Translations under genes and position numbers: made by a program | Assembly: GCA_041651035.1 (NCBI GenBank) | Contig: JBAZKC010000001.1 | Coordinates: forward strand, 195,244-259,243 | Direction of reading: 5' to 3' | Source of the DNA: Candidatus Omnitrophota bacterium | GTDB taxonomy: Bacteria; Omnitrophota; Gorgyraeia; Gygaellales; Profunditerraquicolaceae | Length of the DNA stretch: 64,000 bases | Shown here: positions 6,304 through 58,377 of the stretch, one piece after another | How the letters are laid out: every line of letters begins with the position of its first letter | How positions within the stretch are numbered: position 1 is the first letter of the stretch | Notes under the pieces: model-generated | The model's input: only the letters and a program-made list of their open reading frames with translations | The model's database searches: none | What the model was told of the DNA's origin: nothing

Positions 6304-6347
6304 ATACGCCTCCTCAGGAAATTATGTCTTTATTTATAAGATTCTTT

Positions 6348-7703: not shown

Positions 7704-7719
7704 TTTCTCCTCCGTTATT

Positions 7720-8502: not shown

Positions 8503-8516
8503 ACTGTACTCCGATC

Positions 8517-32952: not shown

Positions 32953-32973
32953 TTTATGCCTCCATTATCTGAT

Positions 32974-33735
32974 TTACTTAAATTGCTCCAGGGTCTCTGT
33001 TATGGGCCCGTGGCTTAAGCCGTTTATGAATTGGCGCACTACAGGATGCTCGGTATTCTGGATCTCTTCCGGCGTGCCTTCCGCTATGATCTTACCCTGA
33101 TACATCATAGCTATCCTGTCTCCTACTTTATAGGCGCTCTTCATATCGTGAGTTACTACGATAGAGGTGACCTTCAATTTATCATGCAGGCTTTTTATCA
33201 GTTCATTTATATTGTCGGCGGTAATAGGGTCAACTCCGGTCGTGGGCTCATCATAAAGTATTATCTTGGGGTTTATGCATATCGCCCTGGCTAAAGCCAC
33301 GCGTTTTTTCATGCCTCCGCTTAATTCAGAAGGCATTAAATTTCCGATACCGCATAAACCCACCAGGCACAATGCTTCTTCCGCTTTTTCCAATAATTCT
33401 TTAGGGCTGATGTGGCCGTGCTCGATAAAACTAAACCCCACGTTCTCCGCCACAGTCAGGGAATCAAAAAGAGCCCCTCCCTGAAAAACCATCCCGACCT
33501 GCATGCGCAGGTCGTTTAAGTCTTCCCGGTTAAAACCCGTGATTTCTTTGGCATTGATAAATATTTTTCCTTTATCGGGCTTAAGCAGGCCGATGACGTG
33601 TTTTAAAAGGACGGATTTCCCGCAGCCGGAGCGCCCTATTACCACACAGGTTTCGCCTGTATTTATCTTAAGGCTTAGTTCATCTAAGACCCTGCGGTTA
33701 TTAAAACTCTTGCTTATCCCTGAGATCTCTATCAT
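32974..33735 (-). CDS. mlaF: ABC transporter ATP-binding protein MlaF
   Basis: Walker A GRSGCGKS, LSGGMKKR signature. Confidence 0.75.
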   Translation of the reverse strand: MIEISGISKSFNNRRVLDELSLKINTGETCVVIGRSGCGKSVLLKHVIGLLKPDKGKIFINAKEITGFNREDLNDLRMQVGMVFQGGALFDSLTVAENVGFSFIEHGHISPKELLEKAEEALCLVGLCGIGNLMPSELSGGMKKRVALARAICINPKIILYDEPTTGVDPITADNINELIKSLHDKLKVTSIVVTHDMKSAYKVGDRIAMMYQGKIIAEGTPEEIQNTEHPVVRQFINGLSHGPITETLEQFK

Positions 33736-33748
33736 AAGTTATGCCTAT

Positions 33749-34534
33749 TTAAGGGAAAATAAAATAAAACAACGCTGTAAAGAAACAGTCGGCAACGATG
33801 ATCATGATGAATGCCGTAACCACCGAACGGGTAGTAGCGCGGCCGACACCCTCTGCCCCGCCTTCCACGTTAAAGCCTTCATGGCAGCTTACCAGAGCAA
33901 TGATCATGCCGAAGAATACCGACTTAAGAATACCGGTAAAAAGATCTTTATAAAATAAAGAATCAAAAGTAACGTGCAGGTACATACTGGAAGATATGCC
34001 CAGTTTATACACACAGATCAAATAACTGCCGAATATGCCGATTGCGTCGGCATACACTGTCAATAAAGGCAGCATCAGGCTTAAGGCCAGAAAACGGGGG
34101 ACAACCAGATATTTTATGGGATTTACGGCTAAGGTCTCCAGCGCGTCTATCTGTTCGGTAACCTGCATCGAGCCTAACTCCGCGGTTATAGAAGCGCCTA
34201 CCCTGCCTGCCACCACCAGCGCGGTAATAACCGGCCCCAGTTCTCTTACAACAGAAAGAGCGACCATGCTGGCGATATAGAGTTCGGAACCTATGCGCTG
34301 CATAAAATACGCGGTCTGCAGGGCAAAAATAAAACCGATAAACAAGGCGACCAGCGATACTATAGGGAAGCTGTCGTAACCAGCTTTTTTCGCCTGTTCA
34401 AAAATATGGTCTCTTTTTAAGGGGGGGGTAAATGTCAAATAAAGAGTCTGGGCTGTCAGATTAGCCAGCCCCCCGCAAAAATACAAGAAGGAAAGGATCC
34501 TGCTGCCGAAATTTATGAAAAAATTATCTATCAT
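33749..34534 (-). CDS. mlaE: ABC transporter permease MlaE
   Basis: MlaE-like 261 aa permease. Confidence 0.75.
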   Translation of the reverse strand: MIDNFFINFGSRILSFLYFCGGLANLTAQTLYLTFTPPLKRDHIFEQAKKAGYDSFPIVSLVALFIGFIFALQTAYFMQRIGSELYIASMVALSVVRELGPVITALVVAGRVGASITAELGSMQVTEQIDALETLAVNPIKYLVVPRFLALSLMLPLLTVYADAIGIFGSYLICVYKLGISSSMYLHVTFDSLFYKDLFTGILKSVFFGMIIALVSCHEGFNVEGGAEGVGRATTRSVVTAFIMIIVADCFFTALFYFIFP

Positions 34535-36951
34535 GATTCGAAAAGTAACTCGTCGTTCTTACGCGAGACTTTCACGAGAGAGCCGCTCTTGAATTTCTTT
34601 GAGATTATCTCGGATGCCAGCGGGTCTTCCAAAAATCTCTGTATCGTCCTTTTTAAGGGCCTGGCGCCGAAGACAGGATCAAAACCTTTTTCGATAAGCA
34701 GATCCTTTGCCTCCAGGCTTACCTCTAGGCCTATATTCTGCTCACGCAGCCTTTCAGCTACGTGGCTGATCTCAATATCAATGATACGCTGTAGGTCCTC
34801 TTTGACCAGCTGCCGGAAAACAATTATATCGTCTATGCGGTTTAAGAATTCCGGTTTAAAGGTCCTCTTTACCTCCTCAAGCAATTTATCCTTCATCTCC
34901 TGGTAAGTGATCTCTTCCTTCTGGGTTTTAAAACCAAGAGAGCCGGTCTTGCGGATCAATTCCGCTCCGACATTGGAAGTCATAATAATGATCGTATTCC
35001 GGAAATCAACTTTTCTGCCGAAGCTATCCGTAAGCCGCCCGTCTTCGAATACCTGAAGGAGCAGGTTAAATACATCCGGATGCGCTTTCTCGATCTCATC
35101 TAATAGTATAACCGAGTAAGGCCTGCGCCTCACCTTTTCAGTAAGCTGTCCTCCCTCTTCATAGCCCACGTATCCCGGAGGAGCTCCTATTAAACGGGAA
35201 ACGTTGAATTTCTCCATATATTCTGACATATCCAACTGTACGAGCGCGTCTTCGTCGCCAAACATGAACTCAGCCAGCACGCGCGCAAGAAGGGTCTTGC
35301 CGACTCCGGTAGGGCCTAGGAATATAAATGAACCAATGGGCCTCTTAGGGTCTTTTATACCGGCGCGCGAACGCCTTACCGCGTGGGCGATCGCCGAAAT
35401 AGGCTCGGCCTGCCCTATTACATGCTTATATAGTTCCTCTTCTATCTTTAATAATTTTTCGCCCTCTTTCTCTTCCAGCCTGACTATGGGTATGCCTGTC
35501 CACTGGGCGACGATCTTGGCGATATCTTCTTCTGTTACTTCCGGCCGTGTCTTATCTTTGGTCTGGGACCATTCGCGGTTTAACTGCTCTAATTCCTGGC
35601 GCGCGCCCCTCTCCTGGTCCCTTAACGATGCCGCCTTCTCAAAATCCTGGCTTTTTATATACGCCTCTTTTTCCTTGCGCAGCGCTTCTACTTTTGCTTC
35701 CAATTTCTTTATATCCGGAGGCACAACCAGAACATTCAGCCTCGCCCGGGAACCTGCCTCATCCATTAAATCGATCGCCTTATCAGGCAGGAACCTGCCT
35801 GAAATATAACGGTCGGATAACTTTGCTGCCGCCTCAAGCGCATCGTCGCGAAACGTTACGCGGTGATGCGCTTCATACTTATCACGCAGCCCCTTTAATA
35901 TTTCCACGGTCTGATCTACGGTAGGAGGCTCAACCATGATAGTCTGGAACCTTCTCTCTAACGCGGCATCTTTCTCAATATACTTTCTGTATTCATCAAT
36001 AGTGGTGGCTCCGATGCATTGCATTTCTCCGCGGGAAAGCGCGGGTTTTAAGATATTGGAAGCGTCTATAGCGCCTTCAGCGGCACCCGCCCCTACCAAT
36101 GTATGCAGCTCGTCGATAAATATAATGACATCCTGGGAACGTTTTATCTCTTCCATTACCGCTTTGATCCTCTCTTCAAACTGCCCGCGGTATTTGGTGC
36201 CGGCGACCATTAACGCCAGATCCAGGACAACAATACGCTTATTCCTTAACACCTCCGGGATATTCCCCTCTACAATTGACTGCGCCATGCCTTCGACTAT
36301 GGCGGTTTTACCCACGCCTGCCTCGCCTAATAATACTGGATTATTTTTGGTGCGCCGGCTTAATACCTGTATAACCCGTTCTATCTCCAGGTGCCTGTCG
36401 ATTACCGGATCAAGCTTATTTTCTTTTGCCAGCGCGGTCAGATCACGGCCAAAGGCATCCAGCGCCGGAGTCTTGGTCTTGGCCTGTTGTCCCCCCTGGC
36501 CAAAACTGGGTAAAGCAGAACCCAGAAGCTCCATTACTTCGCTCCTCACTGTATTTAAATCCATCCCTAAATTCAATAATACCTGCGAAGCTATGCCTTC
36601 GCCTTCGCGGATAAGCCCCAGTAGGAGATGTTCGGTGCCGATATAATTATGCCCTAAAGAACGCGCCTCTTCAGCCGCCAGCTCCAGCGCTTTCTTGGCG
36701 CGCGGAGTAAAAGGTATATCTCCGATGATCTGGGTGGTCGGGCCGGGCTGGACCAGCTTTTCGATCTCCAGGCGTATGTTCTCTAAAGAAACACCCATCT
36801 TTTCCAATACCGCCGAGGCCACGCCTTCGCCTTCGCGGATAAGCCCTAATAATATATGTTCCGTGCCGATATAATCATGATTAAAACGCCTGGCTTCTTC
36901 TTTGGCTAAAATGATTACTTTTCTTGCTCTCTCGGTAAACCTGTTAAACAT
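34531..36951 (-). CDS. clpC: ATP-dependent Clp protease ATP-binding subunit ClpC
   Basis: double Clp-N repeats, two AAA+ modules, UVR motif; 806 aa. Confidence 0.85.
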   Translation of the reverse strand: MFNRFTERARKVIILAKEEARRFNHDYIGTEHILLGLIREGEGVASAVLEKMGVSLENIRLEIEKLVQPGPTTQIIGDIPFTPRAKKALELAAEEARSLGHNYIGTEHLLLGLIREGEGIASQVLLNLGMDLNTVRSEVMELLGSALPSFGQGGQQAKTKTPALDAFGRDLTALAKENKLDPVIDRHLEIERVIQVLSRRTKNNPVLLGEAGVGKTAIVEGMAQSIVEGNIPEVLRNKRIVVLDLALMVAGTKYRGQFEERIKAVMEEIKRSQDVIIFIDELHTLVGAGAAEGAIDASNILKPALSRGEMQCIGATTIDEYRKYIEKDAALERRFQTIMVEPPTVDQTVEILKGLRDKYEAHHRVTFRDDALEAAAKLSDRYISGRFLPDKAIDLMDEAGSRARLNVLVVPPDIKKLEAKVEALRKEKEAYIKSQDFEKAASLRDQERGARQELEQLNREWSQTKDKTRPEVTEEDIAKIVAQWTGIPIVRLEEKEGEKLLKIEEELYKHVIGQAEPISAIAHAVRRSRAGIKDPKRPIGSFIFLGPTGVGKTLLARVLAEFMFGDEDALVQLDMSEYMEKFNVSRLIGAPPGYVGYEEGGQLTEKVRRRPYSVILLDEIEKAHPDVFNLLLQVFEDGRLTDSFGRKVDFRNTIIIMTSNVGAELIRKTGSLGFKTQKEEITYQEMKDKLLEEVKRTFKPEFLNRIDDIIVFRQLVKEDLQRIIDIEISHVAERLREQNIGLEVSLEAKDLLIEKGFDPVFGARPLKRTIQRFLEDPLASEIISKKFKSGSLVKVSRKNDELLFES

Positions 36952-36962
36952 ACTACCTCCCG

Positions 36963-38015
36963 TTATAATATTTTTAATCTATCCCTGATCAGATCAGCGC
37001 GTTTTACATCCCGCTCCTGCGCGGAAAGCTTCTTATTTTCTATCTTCTGCAAATGCGCGGGCTGCGTGATAATAAACAATTCATTGATCGCGGCCCGGTT
37101 GATATCTTTAAGTACCCCCAGGTCAACTCCTAACCTCACCATAGACAGCAGTTCTATCGTCTCCTGGCTGGATATGATATAGGCGCTCTTAAGTATGCCC
37201 AGGCTGCGGTTTATCCTGTCTTCTAAGACCGCCTTGTTTTTAGAAAGCATCACTTCCCTTGCCTGATTTTCCTGCTCTATGATCTGGCGGATGATCCCAT
37301 TAATACTGTTAATGATCTCGTCTTCACTGTGCCCTAAAGAAACCTGATTGGAGATCTGGAAAAAGTTACCGCTTGCCTGCGTGCCTTCACCATACAGCCC
37401 CCGCGTGGCAAAACTCAATTTCGCGATGGCGGCTAATACGCGGTCTATCTGATGGGTCATTACCAGCGCCGGCAGATGCAGCATTACCGAACCGCGCATA
37501 CCCGTGCCTGTATTCGTAGGGCAGGCTGTAAGATACCCCCACTCCTGGCTGAAGGCAAAAGGCAGTTCTTTGTTCATGCTCTCGTCTATTTCGTTGATAA
37601 TATTCCAGGCTTCAAAGAGATTAAACCCCGACTGCATTACCTGCATGCGGATATGGTCCTCTTCATTTATCATTATAGACACGATCTCTTCATTATCTAT
37701 CACTACCGCTTTATGATTTGTTTTCTGGGCATGCTCCAAAGACATAAGATGCCTTTCTACCAGGAATTGCTTATCTATACTATCCAGATCCGCCAGCCTG
37801 AATATGGTTGTCTGTTTCAAGTAGTTGATCTTAGAGACGGCCTCTTCAACTGTCGTTAAAACCTGCTCGCCCTGTTTTTTATCCGCCCAGTGCGGAAAAG
37901 CCATTCCCTCCAGATTCCTGGCCAGGCGTATACGGCTGGAAATCACAATATCCGAATTAGGGCCTGTGCTCTTAAGCCATTCACTGGTATGTTTTAGAAG
38001 ATCACTCAGTTCCAT
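36963..38015 (-). CDS. mcsB: protein arginine kinase McsB (ATP:guanido phosphotransferase)
   Basis: phosphagen-kinase-like domain; position between mcsA and clpC. Confidence 0.85.
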   Translation of the reverse strand: MELSDLLKHTSEWLKSTGPNSDIVISSRIRLARNLEGMAFPHWADKKQGEQVLTTVEEAVSKINYLKQTTIFRLADLDSIDKQFLVERHLMSLEHAQKTNHKAVVIDNEEIVSIMINEEDHIRMQVMQSGFNLFEAWNIINEIDESMNKELPFAFSQEWGYLTACPTNTGTGMRGSVMLHLPALVMTHQIDRVLAAIAKLSFATRGLYGEGTQASGNFFQISNQVSLGHSEDEIINSINGIIRQIIEQENQAREVMLSKNKAVLEDRINRSLGILKSAYIISSQETIELLSMVRLGVDLGVLKDINRAAINELFIITQPAHLQKIENKKLSAQERDVKRADLIRDRLKIL

Positions 38016-38505
38016 TCTTCTCCATCTCTTTTATCTGATCGCGTATCTTGGCGGCCTCTTCAAACGCCTCCGCCTCAATTTTATTCTGAAGCTTAGCGCG
38101 CAACTCGCGCAGGCCTTCTTCTTTCTTCGGAGACTTAACAGCCTTAAAAGGAGACTTACCGAGATGCTGGCCTGAACCGTGTATCCTTTTTAACAAAGGC
38201 CCGAGGTATTTCTTGAATGAATTATAGCATTCCCCGCATCCTAACCGGCCTATCTTTTTAAAATCCGCGAAGGTAAGGCCGCAGCTTGCGCATTTAACGG
38301 CTACCAAAGCCTCCGCTTCTTTAGTATTGGGCTTGGTAAATTCTGTCATACCGGCCAAGAGGTCGCTTAATCCGAATTGCTGCTCCATCTGCGCGTTCTT
38401 CTGGCGCGCGCACTCTTCGCATAAGTGCAGCTCATTCATTTGCTCGTCTATGATTTCCGTCAGATGCACGGTCGCCGGATTCTTACCGCAGATATCGCAT
38501 AACAT
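38002..38505 (-). CDS. mcsA: McsA-like activator (CxxC zinc fingers + UVR domain)
   Basis: CDICGK..CEEC, CASCG..CGEC pairs and UVR-like C-terminus. Confidence 0.7.
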   Translation of the reverse strand: MLCDICGKNPATVHLTEIIDEQMNELHLCEECARQKNAQMEQQFGLSDLLAGMTEFTKPNTKEAEALVAVKCASCGLTFADFKKIGRLGCGECYNSFKKYLGPLLKRIHGSGQHLGKSPFKAVKSPKKEEGLRELRAKLQNKIEAEAFEEAAKIRDQIKEMEKNGTE

Positions 38506-39374
38506 TAATATCTTACTCCTTCTTCTTTTGTCAGCTCCTTGAATTTCTTCATGATATCCAAGGTGAGCTTACCGGGTTTGCCTGTGCCGATAACACGGCC
38601 ATCGACATTAACCACGGGGATGATCTCCGCCGCTGTCCCGGTCAGGAAACACTCATCGGAAATATACACCTCATGGCGGGTGATCACATGTTCGTGCACG
38701 GGTATCCCATTGTTCCGGGAGATCTCTAATACCGCGTCGCGGGTAATGCCTCTTAATGTCCCCATGCACTGCGGAGGAGTATAGAGATGGTCGCGTTTTA
38801 CAATAAAGATATTATCCCCGGTGCACTCGGCGACATAGCCTAAAGAATCCAGCATTATTGCCTCATCAAAACCGGCGTTGCCCGCCTCAATCTTGGCTAA
38901 GATATTATTCAAATAATTCAATGATTTGATCTGAGGGTTTAACGCCTCAGGCAGGTTCCTTATTGTGGGCACGGTAATTATTCTTAATCCTTCCTTGTAT
39001 AACTTTTCCGGATACAGCGCTATTTTGTCGGCGATGATTATAACTGTAGCACCCCCCGTGCATTTACGCGGGTCTAATCCCAGGTCTCCTTCGCCGCGCG
39101 TAACTATCAGCCTGATATAAGCGTCCTTAAGATTATTCGCTTTTAAAGCCGCGACAACCGCCTTGATCATCTGCCCCCTGGTCAAAGGGATCTTCAACAT
39201 TATGCTCTGCGCTGATTCAAAAAGCCGGTCAATATGTTCTTTTAACTTAAATACCAGGCGATTATAAGAACGTATGCCCTCAAAAACTCCGTCGCCGTAT
39301 AAAAGCCCGTGGTCAAACACAGAGATCTTTGCTTTATTCTTCTCATAAAATTTACCGTTGATATAGATCTTCAT
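38505..39374 (-). CDS. ilvE: branched-chain/D-amino-acid aminotransferase (class IV)
   Basis: class IV aminotransferase N-terminus YGDGVFEGIR. Confidence 0.8.
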   Translation of the reverse strand: MKIYINGKFYEKNKAKISVFDHGLLYGDGVFEGIRSYNRLVFKLKEHIDRLFESAQSIMLKIPLTRGQMIKAVVAALKANNLKDAYIRLIVTRGEGDLGLDPRKCTGGATVIIIADKIALYPEKLYKEGLRIITVPTIRNLPEALNPQIKSLNYLNNILAKIEAGNAGFDEAIMLDSLGYVAECTGDNIFIVKRDHLYTPPQCMGTLRGITRDAVLEISRNNGIPVHEHVITRHEVYISDECFLTGTAAEIIPVVNVDGRVIGTGKPGKLTLDIMKKFKELTKEEGVRY

Positions 39375-39392
39375 GCCGCCTCCTCCCTATGC

Positions 39393-40067
39393 CTAATTCA
39401 CGAGTACGCCGTCTCTTAAATAATATACCTTATCCGCTGTTTTTGTTAAATCTATATTATGCGTCACTAAAACAACCGTCATTTGGTTTTCCAGGTTTAT
39501 TTTCCTGATCAAAGAAATTATTTCGTCTCCGGTCTTGGAATCAAGGTTCCCCGTCGGCTCATCGCACAAAAGAAGGCTCGGGCGGTTAACCAGGCTGCGG
39601 ACAATGGACACTCTCTGCTTTTCCCCTCCCGAGAGCTGATTGGGGAAATGCGTGGTCCTTTGGCCTAAGCCCACCTCTTCTAAAAGGCTCAACGCGTTTT
39701 CCCGCATACTGCAGCTTGAGGAGCGCGGCTTGCGGTTGATCAACGCGGGCATAAGCACATTCTCTAAAACCGTAAACTCCGATAATAGATGGTAAAATTG
39801 GAACGCGAAGCCTATTTTTCTATTTCTTACCGCGGAGATCTCGGCGTCGTTTAACCGGTAGATATCTTCCTCTTCAAAAATAACCCTGCCTTCCGTAGGC
39901 ATATCCAGCCCGCCTAATATATGCAGCAGCGTGGACTTACCCGCGCCTGAAGGCCCCACGATAGCCACAAACCTGCCCTTCTCTATGCGTAGATCTATGC
40001 CCTTTAGGACTGCCAGGGATTTCTTGCCGTTATTATAAACCTTGCGGATATTCTTTGCCTCTAACAT
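39393..40067 (-). CDS. lolD: lipoprotein-releasing ABC ATPase LolD
   Basis: Walker A GPSGAGKST, LSGGEKQR. Confidence 0.75.
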   Translation of the reverse strand: MLEAKNIRKVYNNGKKSLAVLKGIDLRIEKGRFVAIVGPSGAGKSTLLHILGGLDMPTEGRVIFEEEDIYRLNDAEISAVRNRKIGFAFQFYHLLSEFTVLENVLMPALINRKPRSSSCSMRENALSLLEEVGLGQRTTHFPNQLSGGEKQRVSIVRSLVNRPSLLLCDEPTGNLDSKTGDEIISLIRKINLENQMTVVLVTHNIDLTKTADKVYYLRDGVLVN

Positions 40068-40075
40068 AAAGGTCC

Positions 40076-41266
40076 TTACTCGTACCTTAAGGCCTCCACT
40101 GGTTTTAATTGGCTGGCCTTTGCTGCCGGGTATACAGTAGAAATCAAGACAATAGCCATAGCGGCCACGGTGATCAAGACGATGTCCGGCCAGAACACTA
40201 TAGACACAGGCAATCTATCAATATAATATACATCCTTGGGCAATTTTATGAATTGGTATTTTTTAAGCAGGCCGCACAGGGTAACACCGCCGAATATGCC
40301 GAAGATAACGCCCAGTGTCCCGATAAGCAGGCCTTCATAAGTAAAGATCCTTCTTATGTCCGAAGAAGTCATACCCAGGGTCCTTAATATGCCTATATCC
40401 TTGGTCTTTTCCACGACCATGACTATCAGAGTGCTTATGATATTAAAAGACGCTACCAATATTATCAAGGTTAAAATGATAAACATGGTGAATTTCTCTA
40501 ATTCCAGGGCGGCAAAGAAATTCTGATTTGCCTCCATCCAGGTCTTTAAGTTATAATTGAGGCCTAAAACAGCCGAGAATTCCTGCTTTACTTTATCCGC
40601 TAAATACAGATTATCCAGCTTTATGGCTACGGCGCTTATCTGGCCGTATAAACCCAGCATCTCCTGGGCGCTCTTTAAATGCACGAACAAAAGATTCATA
40701 TCGTAATCGTACATCCCGGAATTAAAGATGCCCGTCACTTTCAGATTATATTGCTTGCCTAACGGCGATATAACCGTAAGATTGGAATTTAACCCTAATC
40801 CCAGATATATGGCTAATTCTTTTCCGATGATGACGCCGTCGCTCTTTAAGCCGTCGATATCTCCGGAGATAACGTATTGCTTTATCTTGGTCACTTCGGT
40901 TTCTGTGGAAGGTTCTATGCCTTTTAAGCCTACCGCCAGGAACCTGTTGCCTTCCTTGATCAATAACTGGCCCTGAATATAAGGGCTTATGCCTTTGACG
41001 CGCGGGTTTGAAGAAATCTTCCTGGCTAAGGCCTCGTATTCATCATTGCTTATCGGCTTATAACCCGATAAGGTAATATGCGAATAATTTCCCACGATCT
41101 TATCGCGAAGGTCTTTATCAAAACCGGTCATTACGGCGATAACCACGATCAAGGCCGTCATGCCTATGGCCACTCCCATGATAGAAATAACGCTGATCAG
41201 GGAGATGAATTTTTCTTTCCTCTTGGTGATTAGATACCGCCAGCTTATGAATAATTCTGTTTTCAT
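40076..41266 (-). CDS. lolC: LolC/LolE-family (FtsX-like) permease
   Basis: 4 TM with large periplasmic loop, FtsX/MacB-like. Confidence 0.7.
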   Translation of the reverse strand: MKTELFISWRYLITKRKEKFISLISVISIMGVAIGMTALIVVIAVMTGFDKDLRDKIVGNYSHITLSGYKPISNDEYEALARKISSNPRVKGISPYIQGQLLIKEGNRFLAVGLKGIEPSTETEVTKIKQYVISGDIDGLKSDGVIIGKELAIYLGLGLNSNLTVISPLGKQYNLKVTGIFNSGMYDYDMNLLFVHLKSAQEMLGLYGQISAVAIKLDNLYLADKVKQEFSAVLGLNYNLKTWMEANQNFFAALELEKFTMFIILTLIILVASFNIISTLIVMVVEKTKDIGILRTLGMTSSDIRRIFTYEGLLIGTLGVIFGIFGGVTLCGLLKKYQFIKLPKDVYYIDRLPVSIVFWPDIVLITVAAMAIVLISTVYPAAKASQLKPVEALRYE

Positions 41267-47395: not shown

Positions 47396-47925
47396 TTAAG
47401 CCTCGCTCTTATTATTTTTATCCCGGCCTCTTTAAGCATCCGCTGGGCTAATTCATCAGGATAGCCTTCCAGCATTACCACCTTTTTAACTCCGGCGCTG
47501 ATCAGCATTTTAGTGCAGGTTACGCAGGGTTGATTAGTTACATAAAGGACGGAATCCTTTAAGTCTACTCCATGGATTACCGCCTGGATTATTACATTCT
47601 GCTCCGCGTGCAGGCCCCTGCATAATTCCTGGCGCTGGCCTGAAGGGATATTTAATTTCTGGCGGATGCAGCCGGCATCAATACAATGGGCTAAACCAGA
47701 AGGCACACCGTTATATCCGGTGGCTAAAATCCTTTTATCGCGGACCGCCACAGCTCCTACGTATCTGCGCAGGCAGGTTGAGCGCCGGGAAACAAGCTTG
47801 GCCATCTCTAAAAAATATTCATCCCAACTCGGGCGTTCCACAGATTTCCCCGGCAGACAAGGCTGCCCCGGGCCCGCATAGTGGGATTTTAGTATATTCT
47901 TACGGGATATATTTTTCTTTTTCAT
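47392..47925 (-). CDS. dCMP deaminase (ComEB-like)
   Basis: HAEQN and PCVTC zinc-binding motifs. Confidence 0.75.
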
Positions 47926-49175
47926 ATTTTCTTGAATAGCTCCGGATAGAGGGGGAATTTCTTTGTCAAGATCAATACTTCTTTTTTGATTTTTGAGAGC
48001 GCCTCAAGATCGTTACTTAGGGCTATGGCATCGTTTATAAACCGGGCGATCTTCTGCATCTGGAGCTCTTTCATCCCGCGGGTAGTCACCGCGGCAGTGC
48101 CTAAGCGTATGCCGCTGGCAACATTGGCGCTTTTTTTGTCAAAAGGAATGAGGTTTTTATTCACGGTAATACCAGCGTGCCCTAAGACCAAAGACGCGTC
48201 GCTTCCGGTAATGCCTTTTCCGGATAGATCTACCAGCATTAAATGCGTGTCAGTGCCTCCGGAAACTATACGGAATCCATACCCGGCCAAAGATTTAGCA
48301 AGTTCCCGGGCATTTTTTACTACCTGTTCCTGATAAACTTTGAATTTCGGGCTCATTGCCTGACGAAAAGCAATGGCCTTAGCGGCAATAACATGCATTA
48401 AAGGGCCTCCCTGTATACCCGGAAAGATGATAGAGTCTATTTTCCTGGCAAATTCTTCTTTACAGATGATAAATCCGCCCCGCGGCCCGCGCAATGTCTT
48501 ATGAGTGGTAGAAGTAACAAATTCAGCGAAAGGCACCGGCGAAGGATGGACGCCCGCGGCGACAAGCCCGGCAATGTGCGCCATGTCCACAAAAAGATAC
48601 GCGCCTACTTTATCGCAGATCTTACGGAATTGCTTAAAGTCAAGTATCCTGGGATACGCTGAGGCTCCTGCCAGGATCATTTTAGGCTTATGTTTTTTCG
48701 CTAAGCTTAAAATATTATCATAATCCAATGTTTCGGTCTTTGGGTCCAAGCCATAACCGATAACATTATAGAACATGCCGGAGAAATTATGCGGGTGGCC
48801 GTGCGTTAAATGCCCTCCTGAGGCCAGGTCCATCGCTAAAACCGTATCGCCTAATTTCAACGCGGAAAAATAAACCGCCATATTCGCCTGACTGCCGGAA
48901 TGCGCCTGGACATTGACATGTTCAGCCCCAAACAATTTCTTTGCCCGTTCGATAGCCAATGTTTCGGCGTCATCTACGTATTCGCATCCGCCATACCAGC
49001 GGCGGTGAGGATACCCTTCAGCGTATTTATTGGTAAGGACCGAACCCTGCGCTTCAAGCACGGCAAGAGAAGCAAAATTCTCGGAGGCGATTAACTCCAG
49101 GTTATCTTCTTCTCTTATTATTTCATTCTTTATCGCGTTATAAATTTCCGGATCGATATTCTTTATGTGTTCCAC
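47922..49175 (-). CDS. glyA: serine hydroxymethyltransferase
   Basis: PLP site [13 protein letters not shown]. Confidence 0.9.
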
Positions 49176-49633
49176 TTTTTTCGGCTCCTTATCTCTTTTT
49201 CAATATCTTTTATCCGGTTCAGGCGCGCCTTGTGCCTGCCGCCCTGGAATTTTGTATTTAACCAAACTCCCGCGATCCTTCTGGCTAACGCGGAGTTTAC
49301 GAAAGCGGATCCCAAGACCAGCACATTGCTGTCGTTGTGCTGGCGGGAAAGCCGGGCCGCCTTTATGTTATAACATAGCGCCGCGCGCACTCCGGGCAGC
49401 CTGTTTGCCACGATAGAGTTGCCTATACCGCTCTTACAAATAAGAATGCCTCTTTCCACCCTGGCACCGGATATTTCTTTAGCTAAGGCGTAGGCGAAAT
49501 CAGGATAATTACAGCGCTCCTTTGAATAAGTGCCTAGATCTTTTATCTTCAGGCCTTTATTTTTCAGGTAAGGCTTTAATTTTTCTTTAAGCATGAATCC
49601 CGCGTGATCAGAAGCTATGGCTATGCGTTTCAT
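49163..49633 (-). CDS. rpiB: ribose-5-phosphate isomerase B
   Basis: RpiB/LacA/LacB N-terminus [13 protein letters not shown]. Confidence 0.85.
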
Positions 49634-50709
49634 ATTATACTGCTTATCCTTTCCACGGATTCTTTAATTACCTCAAAGGTCTTTTCGTAAAACTCTACGG
49701 GCTTACCTATAGGATCGTCTATCTCCAGGCTATTATCGCTTATTTTAGCAAATTCTTTTAATAAGAAAAGCTTAAATTTTACTTCAGGGAACATTTCTAA
49801 GATCCTTTTTTCCTGCAGCTGTTCCATCACCAGGATCATGTCGGCTTTCTTGACCATATCCGGGGTTATTCTTTGTGAAATATGTCCGGACACATCCATC
49901 CCCCTTTTTCTTAAAATCTCCCTTGTTGACTCTGTCGCGCCCGTTCCCCCCATCATCATTATACCGGCAGATACAACTTCAACGTCATCCCTGTTTTTTT
50001 CTTTCAATATCTTTTTTAAAACAGCTTCAGCCATTACTGAACGGCAGGAATTCCCCGTGCAGACAAAAAGAATGTTTTTCTTCCGCAGTATAGCCAGGAT
50101 ATCTTCTTTTTTTACCGCCCCTTCTCTTAAAACTTCAGGCGGCAGGACAGTCAAGTCTACAATGGAAGATTCGATCCCCAGCCTGGCGCTGCCTGCGTCT
50201 ATGGCAAGTTCTACCAGCCCGTTTAAGTCCTTTATCGCCTCCGAGAAATTTACCGGAGCGGGCTTTCCGGAGATATTTGCCGACGGACAAATTATAGGCA
50301 CGCCTGCCTGCGCGATTATCTCCAAAGCAACTTTATTATCCGGCATACGCAGGCCGATAGTGCCAATACCGGAGGCGCCTCCGCTGTTCTTGGACTTAAG
50401 TATAAGCGTCAATGGCCCGGGCCAGAATTTATCTATAAGCCTGTAGGCAGAAGCCGGGATAGCGCTGGCGAATTCTTCTATTCTTTCTTTTTTATCTACA
50501 TGCAGGGAAAAGGGCTTGTTTTCCGGCCTCTTCTTTATTTTATATAACCTGCCCAATGCTTTGTTGTTGGACATATCAGCCGCTATACCGTAGACTGTTT
50601 CCGTAGGAATGATCACCAGCCTGCCGTCCTTTAAGGCATCGGCAGCTTCTTTGAGGCGGCTCTGTTCGGGCCTTTCAGGGCTTACCTTGATTATTTTAGT
50701 AGAGATCAT
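49630..50709 (-). CDS. fusion: threonylcarbamoyl-AMP synthase (TsaC/YrdC domain) + low-molecular-weight phosphatase (YwlE-like, CTGNSCRS)
   Basis: N-term YRLIDKFWPGPLTLIL (YrdC); C-term ILFVCTGNSCRSVMAE P-loop of LMW-PTP family. Confidence 0.75.
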   Translation of the reverse strand: MISTKIIKVSPERPEQSRLKEAADALKDGRLVIIPTETVYGIAADMSNNKALGRLYKIKKRPENKPFSLHVDKKERIEEFASAIPASAYRLIDKFWPGPLTLILKSKNSGGASGIGTIGLRMPDNKVALEIIAQAGVPIICPSANISGKPAPVNFSEAIKDLNGLVELAIDAGSARLGIESSIVDLTVLPPEVLREGAVKKEDILAILRKKNILFVCTGNSCRSVMAEAVLKKILKEKNRDDVEVVSAGIMMMGGTGATESTREILRKRGMDVSGHISQRITPDMVKKADMILVMEQLQEKRILEMFPEVKFKLFLLKEFAKISDNSLEIDDPIGKPVEFYEKTFEVIKESVERISSII

Positions 50710-51194
50710 AAAACTACCGGCGTATTCTTTACTTTTGCGGCCATTTCTTTCTTGTATCTGCGCATCTTTAAAGATATCTTTTTATTCCTGATACCCAGGA
50801 TCTCCAGAGAAAACAACGCGGCGTTCCTGGCTCCGGCTTTGCCGATAGCCATGCACGCCACCGGAATTCCCGCCGGCATCTGGACTGTAGATAGCAATGA
50901 ATCCAGGCCCTTAAGGCTCTTTGTTTCAATAGGGATACCTACAACCGGCAACGCGGTATGAGAGGCAACTACCCCGGCTAATGCCGCTGCCCCGCCTGCG
51001 GCGGCAATAAAAACCTTAACGCCTCTTTTTGGCGCGGCTTCCACGTATGCGGATAGTTCTCTGGGCGTGCGGTGCGCGGATAAAATTTTAATTTCAAAAC
51101 CAACTTTAAATTCTTTAAGGATATTAACTGCTTCACTGACTATCTCTAAATCCGACTGGCTGCCCATGATTATGCTTATCGCGTTATTGCTCAT
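50706..51194 (-). CDS. purE: N5-carboxyaminoimidazole ribonucleotide mutase
   Basis: IIMGSQSD motif. Confidence 0.9.
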   Translation of the reverse strand: MSNNAISIIMGSQSDLEIVSEAVNILKEFKVGFEIKILSAHRTPRELSAYVEAAPKRGVKVFIAAAGGAAALAGVVASHTALPVVGIPIETKSLKGLDSLLSTVQMPAGIPVACMAIGKAGARNAALFSLEILGIRNKKISLKMRRYKKEMAAKVKNTPVVL

Positions 51195-55668: not shown

Positions 55669-55702
55669 GGGACACCCTTAGCTTTGGCAAGTTGGGTGTC
55701 CC
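55669..55702. terminator. hairpin GGGACACCC-ttagctttggcaagtt-GGGTGTCCC with upstream A-run (terminator of the 891-aa gene; repeat family B)
   Basis: 9-bp perfect arms; same arms/core as 20653-20707. Confidence 0.5.
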
Positions 55703-58377
55703 TAACCTAAAATGATATTAAGCGTATTTATTTTGCTAGAGGGAAGGCTGAGGATGGTTTTCCGGCTGATTCTAACAGCCTGCGGCGCTTTTATAGGCAG
55801 GGGTTTGGAATTGAGGCTTACTTTTATTATCTTATACTTTCCGTAGTCTAACTTTTTAGGATTGATAAAATTGATCCGGAGGCGGCGCCGGGCGAAAATC
55901 CTGTTAACGGTAATAGTTGCCGCGCGTTTAAACTGCTCACAGCTTAATTTCGGCTCAATAACCAGATCACCGTATTCGCCCTTTATGCCGAATACCTGGG
56001 TAATAACCGTCAGCACAAACCAACTGGCAGAGCCGGTAAGATAAGAATACATGCCTTTCCCCTCGAGATCAAAGTATTCCGGAAGGCAAGGATAGATCCT
56101 GCTCTTTTTTGTATCCACTGCCATATTATATATTGAATTCAGGACTCCCCAGCCGTCTTTGACAAATCCGCGTTTATATAACGCGTAACAGAACATTACG
56201 ATCATATGGTTAAAGAACGCGCCGTTTTCTTTATCCCCGTAAACAAAAGAGAACGCGCGGCCGAAATCATGCTGTTCATCCTTAAAATCCGTATTCAAGT
56301 GGAATCCTTTGATATCTTTATTCCAAAGATATTTCCGGCTGCTTTTAATGATCTCTCCAACCTGCCAGCTTTCCGCCACCGAGCTCATAACCGGAAATAC
56401 CTGCGAGATCAAGACCATCCTGACTCCGGAACCAAAAGCCCCTTCTACTTTTCTTTTCTTATTATCATAATAGCCGTTAAAGAAACCCTGTTTCTGCCAT
56501 TCTGTCCTGCGGATATGATTTGCCATCCACGCGGATTTCATTTCCAGGTCATCAGCCAAACCCAGAGTATCAATATTTATTTTATTGCCCTTAACAACGG
56601 ATTCGGTTTGCGCGAAATATCTGTTTAAGGTATCTTGTTTGGCTTTGATACTGTTATAATTTATTTTATTAAAAAGAACAGCTAATTCCTGCGCTACCTC
56701 AATTTGTCGTTTATCTATTTTACGCAATATCCCCGCTAATAATTTAAGGCTCCAGGCATACATACAGCTGAAAGCCACGCTCTCGCCGTTTTCCTTAGCC
56801 ATATCCAGGCCGTCATTCCAATCCGCGCCTTCCAGCCGGACATGATTATGGCTGCCGACGTTAAAAAACTGTACCAGGACTTGCACCAGGAGATGCTCTA
56901 ACACTGACCCATTGTAGATCTTGCCCGAGGAAGTTTTAAGCTTATTCCCATAAGCCGGAGTCCAACTATGGTCTAATTTGCGCGCGCGCCAAAGCTCATG
57001 ATTACGAAAATAAGGGGCTTGAGCAAATAAAATAGCCGAATCCCCGGTCTCATGAATATATGAATCCAGGGTCAACAGCGGCCATATCCCGTGATCCATC
57101 CACACCCGGCTGACATTATTACGGTCAGAGATAAATTCTCCCTGGCCTTTGCCGATAATAGTAGCATTAGAGCCGTCAATCCTCACCCCGGCAAAATTAT
57201 TGATCAATAATTCGCGCATCCCTTCAGGCTGGCTTAAAATCAGGCCTAAGCAATCCTGCCATAGATCCCTCCAACCTCTTCCACCCCGGCCATAATCAAA
57301 ATCCGGCAGGAATGAATTGCCAAATATCCTTCTTAATGTAGGTTGGATACTTACCCAGCGGAACCAATTATCAAAATCCGGATCACCGGTAGAAAGGCTG
57401 GCCTGGCTGCCCTTCTCCTGCCAGAAGTCACGGGTTACATCCAGGGCTTTTTCTACTTTCTTTAACGTCTTAAATTTAGAAACGATCTTTTGAATCTCGG
57501 CTTCTTTTTCCGCGATGCCCATAAGCACAGTATAGGTATGCGCTTGCCCGGGCTTAAGGCTTACAGTATGAAAACGCAAGCCTCCTATTACTTCTTTACC
57601 TTGAATATGAGCGGACCCGCCGGGAAGAATATTATTTAAGACGCAGGCAGGCGCTTCTAAATCTCCTCCCTCGCCGCAAAATTCCTCTTGCGTAGGATAA
57701 AGATACTGCGGAGCTTTGAATTCTTCATCCCAGCCTAAAACAAAATAAAGCTTTTTATTGAGATGATGCCCGGCTTCATCAAATATTAAAGTAGGTTGAG
57801 TGATCAGGCCTAATTTATGCTTCTTTACCCGCTGCAGCAGAGAAGTTACGTGGCGATGATCACGCAGATTATTGGCTGAGCGGGCATATATAGGTATGGC
57901 CGCGTAAGGAATGAATTCTATTTTTCGGGAAGAAATATTGGTGAGTTTAACCTGCATGATCTCTACAGGCTCCCCGCTTGACGGGATAAAAGAACGGATT
58001 TCCGCGCTTAGGCCAACCTGCCGGTTCTCTCTTAAAACACTGTGCCAGAGCAGGCCGGCTTTCAGGCTGACCCGGTCAGCCTGGATTTGTTTTAGGTCCT
58101 TAGAGGCTCCGGCGGCAGACCATACTTTATTATCTTTACTACTAACGGAGTAAATCCAAAAATTACGGGAGGCTCTGGAGTTGACTAGATCGGCGCGGGA
58201 AGACGGGGCAAGCAGGAAACTATTCTGTCCGGCCTTGATATCGCCGGCAAGGACAGGAGTAATAGAAGACATCAAAGACTCATTACACAGCGGAAAGAAA
58301 AGAGTTTTTATTTTGTGCGCGTTGGAGGATTTGAAACTGCCTGAATTATCCGTAAATTCCCAAATATTCTCTTTCAT
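55702..58377 (-). CDS. large glycoside hydrolase/phosphorylase-like protein ((alpha/alpha)6-barrel, GH94/GH15-like), family assignment uncertain
   Basis: 891 aa, no signal peptide; resemblance to cellobiose-phosphorylase-like proteins by eye only. Confidence 0.4.
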   Translation of the reverse strand: MKENIWEFTDNSGSFKSSNAHKIKTLFFPLCNESLMSSITPVLAGDIKAGQNSFLLAPSSRADLVNSRASRNFWIYSVSSKDNKVWSAAGASKDLKQIQADRVSLKAGLLWHSVLRENRQVGLSAEIRSFIPSSGEPVEIMQVKLTNISSRKIEFIPYAAIPIYARSANNLRDHRHVTSLLQRVKKHKLGLITQPTLIFDEAGHHLNKKLYFVLGWDEEFKAPQYLYPTQEEFCGEGGDLEAPACVLNNILPGGSAHIQGKEVIGGLRFHTVSLKPGQAHTYTVLMGIAEKEAEIQKIVSKFKTLKKVEKALDVTRDFWQEKGSQASLSTGDPDFDNWFRWVSIQPTLRRIFGNSFLPDFDYGRGGRGWRDLWQDCLGLILSQPEGMRELLINNFAGVRIDGSNATIIGKGQGEFISDRNNVSRVWMDHGIWPLLTLDSYIHETGDSAILFAQAPYFRNHELWRARKLDHSWTPAYGNKLKTSSGKIYNGSVLEHLLVQVLVQFFNVGSHNHVRLEGADWNDGLDMAKENGESVAFSCMYAWSLKLLAGILRKIDKRQIEVAQELAVLFNKINYNSIKAKQDTLNRYFAQTESVVKGNKINIDTLGLADDLEMKSAWMANHIRRTEWQKQGFFNGYYDNKKRKVEGAFGSGVRMVLISQVFPVMSSVAESWQVGEIIKSSRKYLWNKDIKGFHLNTDFKDEQHDFGRAFSFVYGDKENGAFFNHMIVMFCYALYKRGFVKDGWGVLNSIYNMAVDTKKSRIYPCLPEYFDLEGKGMYSYLTGSASWFVLTVITQVFGIKGEYGDLVIEPKLSCEQFKRAATITVNRIFARRRLRINFINPKKLDYGKYKIIKVSLNSKPLPIKAPQAVRISRKTILSLPSSKINTLNIILG

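Follow-up and report, generated by a model that had tools for sequence, protein, structure and literature searches.

In the literature, the tagging of proteins for degradation by arginine phosphorylation is regarded as a Gram-positive trait. In the arginine phosphatase YwlE, the hydroxyl of Thr11 and the residue Asp118 recognise the guanidinium group, and replacement of Thr11 by Ile shifts the activity toward phospho-tyrosine (PMC7772506; bioRxiv 10.64898/2026.01.13.697720). Specificity among the low-molecular-weight (LMW) phosphatases is not absolute, because the tyrosine-type PtpA of Staphylococcus aureus is also active on phospho-arginine (recent preprint). One protein of the t6A pathway, TsaD of Bacillus subtilis, reportedly carries arginine phosphorylation and is under the control of McsB, YwlE and ClpCP (PMC7546277). 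A fusion of a TsaC domain to a phosphatase is not mentioned in the t6A literature that we consulted (PMC10321239, PMC10484737, PMC4615747), and a literature search for McsB in Omnitrophota or Planctomycetes found "McsB" and "Planctomycet" together only in an unrelated context.

Here we describe such a fusion, a previously unremarked variant of known enzymes, in a 64-kb stretch of Omnitrophota DNA (the window, by which we mean the whole stretch analysed). Our explanation, to which we assign as a whole a probability of roughly 0.7, is that the protein is a bifunctional threonylcarbamoyl-AMP (TC-AMP) synthase and YwlE-type arginine phosphatase, fused in an ancestor of the PVC group.

Architecture and integrity of the fused gene

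The fused gene is read from an ATG start codon as one open reading frame (Table 1). In the 359-residue product, Pfam recognised PF01300 (Sua5_yciO_yrdC) at residues 25-197 with an E-value of 1.9e-56 and PF01451 (LMWPc) at residues 213-353 with an E-value of 2.3e-32, and neither a stop codon nor a frameshift was read between the two halves. With the NCBIfam match TIGR00057, these results bear out the initial annotation, which had described a TsaC(YrdC)::LMW-phosphatase fusion of this length with the P-loop CTGNSCRS. The AlphaFold2 model of the whole protein had a pLDDT of 94.7 and a pTM of 0.91.

Table 1. Features of the window that bear on the fused gene, in order of position.
Feature	Position	Strand	Basis or remark
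tsaB, t6A pathway partner	17549-18247	-	PF00814
tsaE, t6A pathway partner	18228-18698	-	PF02367
clpC	34531..36951	-	Clp_N twice, AAA, AAA_2, UVR; GTEH motifs at residues 29-32 and 105-108 (N-domain)
mcsB, protein arginine kinase	36963..38015	-	NF002194, 464.5 against a cut-off of 385
mcsA-like activator	38002..38505	-	NF053706, 161 bits, under the cut-off of 210 but the sole match; UVR motif
glyA, serine hydroxymethyltransferase	47922..49175	-	PF00464, E 2e-165
rpiB	49163..49633	-	PF02502, TIGR01120; start overlaps the stop codon of the fused gene (ATGA)
Fused gene, TsaC-type TC-AMP synthase domain and YwlE-like LMW phosphatase domain, 359 aa	49630..50709	-	Open reading frame, Pfam, NCBIfam
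C-terminal LMW phosphatase domain, YwlE-like, residues 208-359	49630..50088	-	PF01451
D332-P333 general-acid motif in the context DPIG (D-loop)	49711..49716	-	Read in sequence
P-loop C217-T-G-N-S221-C-R223-S224: nucleophile Cys217, phosphate-binding Arg223, Ser221 at the position of YwlE Thr11	50038..50061	-	Read in sequence
N-terminal TsaC/Sua5-type catalytic (YrdC) domain, residues 1-207	50089..50709	-	PF01300; no SUA5 domain after it
purE	50706..51194	-	PF00731; stop overlaps the start codon of the fused gene (ATGA)

A false joining of two genes during assembly, for example at the A7 run close to where the two domains join, was considered and ruled out, because the same architecture is kept in many diverged lineages: both domains were present in 120 of the 120 closest database proteins (60-75% identity) and in 36 of the 150 cluster representatives (clustered at 50% identity) that were nearest to the phosphatase domain out of 1.84 billion. 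Across 93 fusion proteins with 37-75% identity to the one in the window, no catalytic residue of either domain varied. Conservation of the C-terminal half equals or exceeds that of the N-terminal half, with identities for the N- and C-terminal halves of 64% and 64% (locus L001), 62% and 68% (L003), 61% and 66% (L005), and 47% and 58% (L006). The named fusion proteins found in the searches carry only the label "L-threonylcarbamoyladenylate synthase" or the equivalent JGI label, and the phosphatase half is therefore invisible in the annotation.

Gene neighbourhood of the fusion

The fused gene belongs to a minus-strand run of genes consisting of purD, purE, the fusion, rpiB, glyA, a dCMP deaminase gene and nrdR, and purE is its conserved upstream neighbour in the Omnitrophota loci. 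Fusions were found in Omnitrophota, in Planctomycetota and in one record assigned to "Candidatus Aerophobetes", always with rpiB as the next gene. We compared the gene order in Bacillota loci (L018, L024, L025, L046, L059, L064, L071 and L078) with that in PVC loci (L005-L013, L017 and L039). The Bacillota loci have separate sua5, ywlE and rpiB genes, often with glyA or a dCMP deaminase gene, in the same order, and rpiB comes after the phosphatase, fused or free-standing, at all PVC loci and at most Bacillota loci with an adjacent ywlE. Because the Bacillota order sua5-ywlE-rpiB matches the order fusion-rpiB, the fused phosphatase domain occupies the position of ywlE. The Bacillus-like order ywlC-ywlE-rpiB-glyA with its first two genes fused, as originally noted, was thus recovered in this comparison: the genes are separate in Bacillota and joined in the window and its PVC relatives. 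At the loci examined, neither a tyrosine-kinase gene nor a polysaccharide-export gene adjoined the fusion. In Pontiella, a 221-residue TsaC that lacks the SUA5 domain adjoins a separate ywlE.

The N-terminal synthase domain

The protein scored 216.8 bits against the NCBIfam model for L-threonylcarbamoyladenylate synthase (TIGR00057), well above the cut-off of 123.2. The motifs P-T-E-T-V-Y-G, K-x-R, P-G-P-x-T, R-x-P and S-A-N-x-S-G, which we take to be catalytic from established knowledge of the TsaC/Sua5 family, are all present in the window protein and are invariant or nearly so in the 93 fusions. The residues that never varied in this set are T36, T38, V39, Y40, G41, K59, R61, P97, G98, T101, R121, S143, N145, S181 and R195. 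The best fold matches of the domain were Sua5 and the TsaC2 of Thermotoga maritima (23-37% identity, E about 1e-24). Escherichia coli YrdC was 23-24% identical in the fold search, and the type-1 TsaC model NF007919 gave 63.7 bits against a cut-off of 175, so that the domain falls outside type 1. Judged by its sequence, the N-terminal domain is Sua5-derived.

The genes tsaB and tsaE are both present in the window, as expected of a bacterial t6A pathway, and tsaD is absent from its 64 kb. The fusion is presumably the only TsaC of the genome.

Pfam found no match to the SUA5 domain (PF03481) in the fusion protein, and the linker motif of the Bacillota Sua5 is also missing. A plain joining of ywlC to ywlE therefore does not describe the fusion. 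The initial annotation, which had put it in those terms, was right about the joining, but the SUA5 domain of B. subtilis YwlC is not part of the product.

The absence of this domain raises the question of whether the phosphatase fold mainly replaces a lost SUA5, either as a structural or regulatory partner of TsaC or as an enzyme that hydrolyses some small phosphorylated by-product, instead of acting as a protein phosphatase of the McsB pathway. The phosphatase domain does take the place of the SUA5 domain in the sequence, the SUA5 domain is itself described as an atypical Rossmann fold whose function is unknown (PMC10321239), and the pTM of 0.91 for the two-domain model may indicate a fixed interface. 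Foldseek alignments to Sua5 span both domains, up to 394 columns, but the full-length superpositions have an rmsd of 14-22 Å and a TM score of about 0.54; therefore, just one domain superposes on Sua5. Furthermore, the full phosphatase catalytic set (Cys, Arg and Asp-Pro) is invariant, which a purely structural role would not need, and the YwlE-type phosphatase of Pontiella stands free beside a TsaC that already lacks SUA5. Other fusions point to joining with whichever operon neighbour adjoins and not to a role specific to TsaC. We therefore consider it improbable that replacement of SUA5 is the main role of the domain, and favour a YwlE-type protein phosphatase.

Specificity of the C-terminal phosphatase domain

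Residues C217, R223 and D332-P333 were invariant in the 93 fusion sequences. The residue that would set specificity, at position 5 of the P-loop, is a hydroxyl residue in most of the nearest relatives. Of the 120 closest homologues, 113 have the P-loop CTGNSCRS and 3 have CTGNTCRS, whereas of the seven Planctomycetota fusions that were read six have CTGNTCRS and one CSGNSCRS. Ser and Thr thus alternate at this position within the fusion family, with Ser predominating in Omnitrophota. Among the 150 nearest phosphatase domains the residue is Ser or Thr in 135, and Ile, Leu or Val in only 6. The D-loop has the form DP-x-G, which the fusion shares with YwlE (DPFGG), whereas the tyrosine phosphatases have DPYY, DPYR or DPWY.

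In a sequence search of solved structures, the best matches were 4egs, the YwlE of Geobacillus stearothermophilus (4pic) and the YwlE of B. subtilis, with 85, 79 and 73 bits, followed by Wzb/AmsI at about 62 bits and ArsC at about 47 bits. The YwlE structures also ranked first in the fold search (TM 0.84-0.93, normalised to the target; rmsd 1.7-2.2 Å), and in both searches the margin of YwlE over the tyrosine phosphatases was modest. In a neighbour-joining tree built on BLOSUM-based distances, the window domain, 30 fusions and three YwlE references fell on one side of a split with 239 of 300 bootstraps, and all seven tyrosine-phosphatase references together with every protein with a hydrophobic P-loop fell on the other. 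A single split leaving out both the tyrosine phosphatases and ArsC appeared in 19 of 300 bootstraps, and in a crude tree built on identity distances the corresponding split of YwlE and the window domain from the tyrosine phosphatases and ArsC appeared in 8 of 200. By sequence, by fold and by the 239 bootstraps, the domain is nearer to YwlE than to the tyrosine-specific LMW phosphatases, as had been proposed at the outset.

These results bear on the possibility that the domain is a phosphatase of tyrosine type to which McsB is irrelevant. Pfam and NCBIfam do name the fold after tyrosine phosphatases, no arginine-phosphatase model was among the NCBIfam matches, and Wzb and Etp were the best-scoring named NCBIfam models; their scores of 69 and 67 bits, however, lie far under the cut-offs of 243 and 247. 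In fold, the domain resembles Wzb almost as closely as it does YwlE, and the specificity of LMW phosphatases is leaky (bioRxiv 10.64898/2026.01.13.697720). On the other hand, Ser takes the place of Ile, Leu or Val at position 5 of the P-loop, DPIG stands where the aromatic D-loop would be, the tree separates the domain from the tyrosine phosphatases, the domain sits in the ywlE position of the operon, and the genes for tyrosine kinases and polysaccharide export do not adjoin it. Thus, we give little credence to a tyrosine-type enzyme.

A second alternative is an ArsC of the pI258 type, an arsenate reductase coupled to thioredoxin. Its P-loop is identical to CTGNSCRS and its D-loop has a similar DP-x-G form. 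The window also holds an arsenic-type cluster at 5119-9719 (ArsP, an ArsM-like methyltransferase, a thioredoxin-fold protein, DsbD_2 and an ACR3-like transporter) that contains no ArsC, and the single, short ArsC reference stays inside the large YwlE-like clade of the tree; for this last reason the tree was not used against ArsC. However, the Cys82/Cys89 relay that recycles ArsC is missing. The window domain has just the two cysteines of the P-loop, as do 110 of the 120 closest homologues. The NCBIfam ArsC models scored 50-57 bits against cut-offs of 174-215, in the search of solved structures ArsC ranked under the tyrosine phosphatases as well as under YwlE, and the fused gene lies in a housekeeping purine and one-carbon operon, 40 kb from the arsenic cluster. 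We exclude ArsC because of the missing cysteine pair and not because of the P-loop, and the probability left to it is very small.

The initial annotation had read the Ser in the P-loop as a sign of arginine-phosphate specificity. This holds insofar as the hydroxyl is kept and Ser and Thr interchange; the P-loop alone does not discriminate, since pI258 ArsC has the same one. We found no assay of a Ser-type enzyme of this family in the literature, and the equivalence of Ser221 and Thr11 is therefore inferred. With its YwlE-like features, the domain most likely prefers phospho-arginine on proteins.

McsA, McsB and ClpC in a diderm setting

The 120 best homologues of the window McsB are 78-89% identical to it, and the named records among them are from Omnitrophota and are called protein arginine kinase. 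Trentini et al. 2016 reportedly placed the phospho-arginine sites of B. subtilis ClpC at Glu32 and Glu106, to which the two GTEH motifs of the window ClpC would correspond. The genes mcsA, mcsB and clpC sit among Lol, Mla and Lpt genes, and the window contains the diderm markers LptF/G, MlaDEF and a LolCDE-like set, which supports the description of the organism as diderm-looking. Neither ClpP nor CtsR turned up in the 64-kb window. The arginine-phosphate tagging system proposed in the initial annotation is borne out for mcsA, mcsB and clpC, which are adjacent genes, with the McsA score under its cut-off.

In the window, mcsB lies 11.6 kb from the fusion, and a survey of 84 loci detected no mcsB within 10 kb of either the fusion or sua5-ywlE. 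In a second genome, the fusion and mcsA-mcsB-clpC are on one contig of 80,945 bp (Ga0129287_10000057). Co-occurrence of the fusion with McsB was thus seen directly only in the window and on one further contig. Because mcsB has no genomic linkage to the fusion, the argument that connects the two rests on their co-occurrence on long contigs.

Proposed function and origin

We propose that the N-terminal domain would be the TC-AMP synthase of the cell, which begins the synthesis of the universal tRNA modification t6A by forming TC-AMP from threonine, bicarbonate and ATP as its first step, and that TsaD, TsaB and TsaE would use this product to make t6A at position 37 of tRNA. The C-terminal domain would be an active cysteine phosphatase of the YwlE type, in which Cys217 would attack the phosphate held by the P-loop and Arg223 while Asp332 would act as the general acid. 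The hydroxyl of Ser221 would take the role of Thr11 of YwlE in binding the guanidinium, and the preferred substrate would therefore be protein phospho-arginine. The fusion would then reverse the marks, placed by McsA-activated McsB, that send proteins to ClpC. As for its origin, it probably arose from an old, translationally coupled operon sua5-ywlE-rpiB-glyA in an ancestor of the PVC group, where the SUA5 domain would have been lost first, as in Pontiella, and the reading frames joined afterwards.

The fusion might also reflect a genuine functional coupling and not simply the chance that the two genes were neighbours in an operon. In that case, the phosphatase would replace SUA5 at a fixed interface with TsaC and tether arginine dephosphorylation to the t6A machinery. 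Such a tether could shield TsaD and its partners from tagging by McsB and from ClpC-dependent degradation; alternatively, the binding of substrate in TsaC could gate the phosphatase activity. We regard this coupling as speculative and rather unlikely. If it is true, diderms of the PVC group link translation fidelity to arginine-phosphate proteostasis, which is generally held to be confined to Gram-positive bacteria.

With regard to the bifunctional enzyme, the fusion and the ancestral adjacency of sua5 and ywlE provide a testable genomic hint of a connection between t6A and arginine phosphorylation, a connection reported for TsaD in one B. subtilis study. In Omnitrophota, a conserved set of kinase, activator, unfoldase and probable eraser occurs among genes of outer-membrane biogenesis. 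The Ser form of the P-loop, common in the nearest relatives, is a naturally occurring change at the residue that decides between arginine and tyrosine specificity.

Comparison with known systems

The phosphatase domain has the same fold as the YwlE of B. subtilis and G. stearothermophilus (PDB 4kk3 and 4pic) and as the unnamed YwlE-like protein 4egs of Thermoanaerobacter tengcongensis. They have in common the C-x5-R-S P-loop with a second Cys at position 6 and a hydroxyl residue at position 5, the DP-x-G loop, a gene position between the TC-AMP synthase gene and rpiB, and genomes with McsA, McsB and ClpC. The fusion differs from YwlE in having Ser for Thr at the specificity position and Ile for Phe or Tyr after Asp-Pro, in being covalently joined to TsaC and not free-standing, and in its host, a diderm bacterium of the PVC group in which no ctsR lies beside mcsA-mcsB. 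The ArsC of pI258 (PDB 1ljl) shares the P-loop, the DP-x-G loop and the fold family with the fusion, which differs from it in lacking the cysteine relay, in its longer C-terminal region and in its low scores against the ArsC models.

The synthase domain is of the same catalytic type as Sua5/TsaC2 (B. subtilis YwlC; the Sulfolobus tokodaii, Pyrococcus abyssi and T. maritima structures 3aje, 6f87 and 9dsq), with which it shares all conserved motifs at 23-37% identity in the fold alignments. In contrast to Sua5, the fusion has neither the linker motif P-G-M-x-Y-T-H-Y-x-P nor the SUA5 domain, and the phosphatase domain comes straight after the L-R-E-G motif. The single-domain, type-1 TsaC (YrdC) of E. 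coli likewise has no SUA5 domain and shares the fold (1hru, target-normalised TM 0.81), but the window domain is set apart from it by the low identity and by the NF007919 score under the cut-off. Finally, a TsaC-like domain is likewise a module of a larger protein in HypF, TobZ, TsaN and the TsaC/HemK of Mycoplasma genitalium (PMC10321239, PMC10484737, PMC4615747). With the exception of TsaC/HemK, the partners in those proteins share the same chemistry, whereas here the partner would be a protein phosphatase of a different pathway.

An intact fusion gene in a conserved operon

The 359-residue ORF encodes a single polypeptide in which both catalytic domains, TsaC and a cysteine phosphatase of the YwlE lineage, are intact. 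Pfam places a Sua5/YciO/YrdC domain at residues 25–197 (E = 1.9e-56) and a low-molecular-weight (LMW) phosphatase domain at residues 213–353 (E = 2.3e-32), and the protein scored 216.8 (cut-off 123.2) against the NCBIfam model TIGR00057 (L-threonylcarbamoyladenylate synthase). The P-loop was read in the DNA, where a single frame runs from one half into the other without a stop codon. These results confirm the two-domain fusion proposed in the initial annotation. A run of seven adenines occurs at about 50100–50110 (minus strand), in linker-coding DNA immediately before the phosphatase domain; it is a type of site where slippage or sequencing error could split or join frames and has no consequence here. 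An AlphaFold2 model, with an alignment of 93 fusion proteins as input, had a pLDDT of 94.7 and a pTM of 0.91; the latter suggests that the domains adopt a defined relative arrangement.

The gene order on the minus strand is purD, purE, fusion, rpiB, glyA, dCMP deaminase, nrdR, a BFN-domain protein and the CCA-adding enzyme, so that rpiB and glyA do lie beside the fusion as claimed. ATGA overlaps link the purE stop to the fusion start and the fusion stop to the rpiB start, and the gene is co-transcribed, and probably translationally coupled, with both neighbors. Beside the purine operon, an 891-aa protein (55702–58377, minus strand) has GH94 (cellobiose/chitobiose phosphorylase-like) supersandwich and catalytic domains.

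The fusion is a real, conserved gene of an Omnitrophota bacterium. The order from purD to nrdR is retained in relatives about 64% identical, and both domains are present in all of the best 120 database matches (60–75% identity), which are annotated as threonylcarbamoyl-AMP synthase only; the named proteins among them come from Candidatus Omnitrophica/Omnitrophota, plus one record labelled Margulisiibacteriota. Across the 93 aligned fusion proteins (37–75% identical to the window protein), the invariant residues are T36, T38, V39, Y40, G41, K59, R61, P97, G98, T101, R121, S143, N145, S181 and R195 in the TsaC half and C217, N220, C222, R223, S224, D332 and P333 in the phosphatase half, and the C-terminal half is at least as conserved as the N-terminal half. 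In one family member, P0125, the TsaC motifs are degenerate (PIGGCYMIAGD for PTETVYG; no S-A-N) while the phosphatase motifs are intact, and the functional part in that lineage may be the phosphatase half alone.

Features of the window discussed here
Feature	Position	Strand	Remarks
SBF/ACR3-like transporter	5119–6303	−	
DsbD_2 membrane protein	6348–7037	−	
Thioredoxin_3 small redox protein	7416–7703	−	
ArsM-like SAM methyltransferase	7720–8502	−	N-terminal Cys-rich stretch
ArsP-family permease	8517–9719	−	
DUF134 protein	9689–9991		upstream of arsenic-type cluster
mcsB	36963–38015	−	NCBIfam protein arginine kinase equivalog, 464.5 (cut-off 385)
clpC	downstream of mcsB		both N-domain GTEH motifs read
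TsaC-phosphatase fusion	49630–50709	−	ORF, 359 residues
Asp-Pro of phosphatase domain	49711–49716	−	gat cct
P-loop C-T-G-N-S-C-R-S	50038–50061	−	tgc acg ggg aat tcc tgc cgt tca

A probable YwlE-type phosphatase domain

Five lines of evidence (sequence, fold, nearest relatives, tree and D-loop) point to a YwlE-type phosphatase. A sequence search of solved structures ranked 4egs from T. tengcongensis first, followed by YwlE of G. stearothermophilus (E = 3.2e-21) and B. subtilis (E = 3e-19), then AmsI and Wzb (about 1e-16) and then ArsC (about 1e-11). The 4egs entry was deposited as ‘Ribose 5-phosphate isomerase RpiB’; its sequence is that of a YwlE-like phosphatase (CTGNTCRS, DPYGM), and the neighboring gene is the probable source of the molecule name. 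In the fold search, YwlE structures were the top matches to this domain, with a small lead over Wzb and PtpA. The phosphatase domain alone was also searched exhaustively with HMMER in 1.84 billion cluster representatives; among the 150 nearest proteins returned, position 5 of the P-loop was Ser in 87, Thr in 48 and Ile, Leu or Val in 6. Two large proteins, P0121 (1679 aa; six matched stretches) and P0166 (2197 aa), contain several LMW-phosphatase repeats with the P-loop CAGNACRS.

A neighbor-joining tree was built from BLOSUM-based distances, with reference sequences checked against PDB entries. In 239 of 300 bootstraps, the window protein grouped with the three YwlE references and each of the 30 sampled fusions, apart from all seven tyrosine-phosphatase references, and every protein with a hydrophobic P-loop residue fell on the tyrosine-phosphatase side of this split. 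Relative to the tyrosine phosphatases, the C-terminal domain thus groups with YwlE, a comparison on which its assignment had been made to depend. YwlE (DPFGG, DPYGM) and the fusions (DPIG) share a D-loop of the form DP-x-G, whereas tyrosine phosphatases have DPYY, DPYR, DPYK or DPWY.

In YwlE, the Thr11 hydroxyl and Asp118 bind the guanidinium group, and with Ile in place of Thr11 activity moves away from phospho-arginine towards phospho-tyrosine, in both YwlE and fly DARP (PMC7772506; bioRxiv 10.64898/2026.01.13.697720). Ser221 of the fusion retains a hydroxyl at this position. Because Ser and Thr alternate within the fusion family, the two appear to be functionally interchangeable, and Ser221 would be equivalent to Thr11; no assay of an enzyme with Ser at this position turned up in the literature. 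The initial reading took the P-loop to be consistent with arginine specificity. By itself the motif is not decisive: CTGNSCRS is also exactly the P-loop of the pI258 arsenate reductase (confirmed against PDB 1ljl), a match that the initial reading overlooked.

This identity raises the alternative that the C-terminal domain is a pI258-type, thioredoxin-coupled arsenate reductase (ArsC). The ArsC D-loop is also DP-x-G, the tree leaves the single ArsC sequence inside the YwlE-like clade, and the window contains an arsenic-type cluster (5119–9719, minus strand) without an arsenate reductase. We nevertheless consider this alternative unlikely. The only cysteines of the fusion domain are those of the P-loop, and it therefore lacks the Cys82/Cys89 relay; two cysteines only are likewise found in 110 of the 120 closest homologues (best 120 matches). 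Moreover, ArsC family models gave 50–57 bits on the fusion against cut-offs of 174–215, ArsC ranked under both YwlE and the tyrosine phosphatases among solved structures, and the fusion belongs to a housekeeping operon.

An McsA-McsB-ClpC system in a diderm organism

The predicted mcsA-mcsB-clpC cluster was also recovered, with McsB above its cut-off and clpC adjacent. Upstream of mcsB, a 167-aa McsA-like protein with a UVR motif scored 161, below the cut-off of 210, in its sole match. The GTEH motifs of ClpC would correspond to the phospho-arginine-binding glutamates reported by Trentini et al. (2016). No ctsR accompanies the cluster. Within the region 32341–41266 (minus strand), ilvE and LolCDE-like genes adjoin the cluster at one end and mlaE, mlaF, mlaD and radA at the other, an order repeated in a second Omnitrophota contig (L086). 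Together with an LptF/G permease encoded in the window, these Lol and Mla genes support the earlier view of a diderm organism.

McsB is strongly conserved in Omnitrophota: the best 120 matches, which annotation pipelines already label as protein arginine kinase, are 78–89% identical. The JGI contig Ga0129287_10000057 (80,945 bp) carries the fusion at about 32–34 kb and mcsA-mcsB-clpC at about 58–62 kb, with window-like flanks. In two further pairs, the fusion and McsB records come from contigs of matching length (25,615 and 24,846 bp). No other locus examined had mcsB nearer than 10 kb to the fusion, and the distance of 11.6 kb in the window therefore does not represent operonic linkage.

Distribution and origin of the fusion

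The fusion alignment was scanned against a sample of genomes, one per GTDB species, and the loci were re-analyzed.

Arrangement of TsaC/Sua5 and phosphatase domains in sampled loci
Lineage	Loci	Arrangement	P-loop position 5
Omnitrophota	L005, L006, L011	contiguous fused ORF	Ser
MAGs labelled Planctomycetales	L007, L008	contiguous fused ORF	Ser
Phycisphaerae/Sedimentisphaerales	L009, L010, L012	contiguous fused ORF	Thr (CTGNTCRS)
Pirellulales	L013	contiguous fused ORF	Ser (CSGNSCRS)
Other Planctomycetota	L017, L039	contiguous fused ORF	Thr (CTGNTCRS)
Pontiella sp. (Kiritimatiellota)	L016, 3084–4250	221-aa TsaC without SUA5, 43 bases, separate 152-aa YwlE-like phosphatase (DPFGG), rpiB	Thr (CTGNTCRS)
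Bacillota	e.g. L018, L046, L059, L071	two-domain Sua5 with P-G-M-K-Y-T-H-Y-x-P linker, separate ywlE in other frame	Thr (CTGNTCRS)

The Bacillus-like order suggested at the outset is borne out: sua5, ywlE and rpiB are separate in Bacillota, and the first two are joined in the sampled fused loci. In most Bacillota loci sampled, rpiB comes after ywlE, often with glyA or the deaminase next; in some, a gene intervenes before ywlE, as ywlD does in B. subtilis. Because rpiB follows the phosphatase in these loci, and does so immediately in Pontiella and wherever the ORF is fused, the window's phosphatase domain occupies the ywlE slot of an old operon. The fusion no longer has the SUA5 domain, and the Pontiella arrangement resembles a transitional state between those of Bacillota and the fused loci. 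A divergent fusion cluster named Candidatus Aerophobetes (P0194) has the P-loop CTANMCRS, with Ala for Gly and Met at the specificity position.

In fold alignments, the N-terminal domain shares 23–37% identity with Sua5 and T. maritima TsaC2 and 23–24% with E. coli YrdC, and the type-1 TsaC model scores far under its cut-off. Judged by these comparisons, the domain is Sua5-derived. Full-length alignments to Sua5 span both domains while superposing only one (rmsd 14–22 Å, TM 0.54); the phosphatase domain takes the place of SUA5 in sequence, not demonstrably in space.

Proposed function and reasons for the fusion

The N-terminal domain would supply TC-AMP for t6A, and the C-terminal domain would remove phosphate from protein arginines, thereby opposing McsB. 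This YwlE-type, McsB-opposing reading is well supported. Both enzyme families are well known and the architecture is visible in precomputed Pfam matches; in the literature searched, t6A papers included, we found no description of a TsaC-phosphatase fusion and no discussion of McsB in Omnitrophota or Planctomycetes. Overlapping tsaB (232 aa) and tsaE (156 aa) genes lie at 17549–18698 (minus strand), about 31 kb from the fusion, so that this single 64-kb window contains three of the four genes of the bacterial t6A pathway.

We favor a plain explanation of the joining, namely that overlapping, translationally coupled operon neighbors fuse easily. Ser/Thr-type phosphatase domains were also found with RpiB fused on the C-terminal side (P0239 and P0270, about 300 aa) and, by eye, after a PurD-looking N-terminus (P0150, 586 aa); a ywlE-like gene therefore seems to join whichever operon neighbor it has. 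Three points speak against pure accident: the adjacency of sua5 and ywlE is deeply conserved, the pTM is high, and TsaD of B. subtilis is reported to be arginine-phosphorylated and to be stabilized by YwlE against McsB/ClpCP (PMC7546277).
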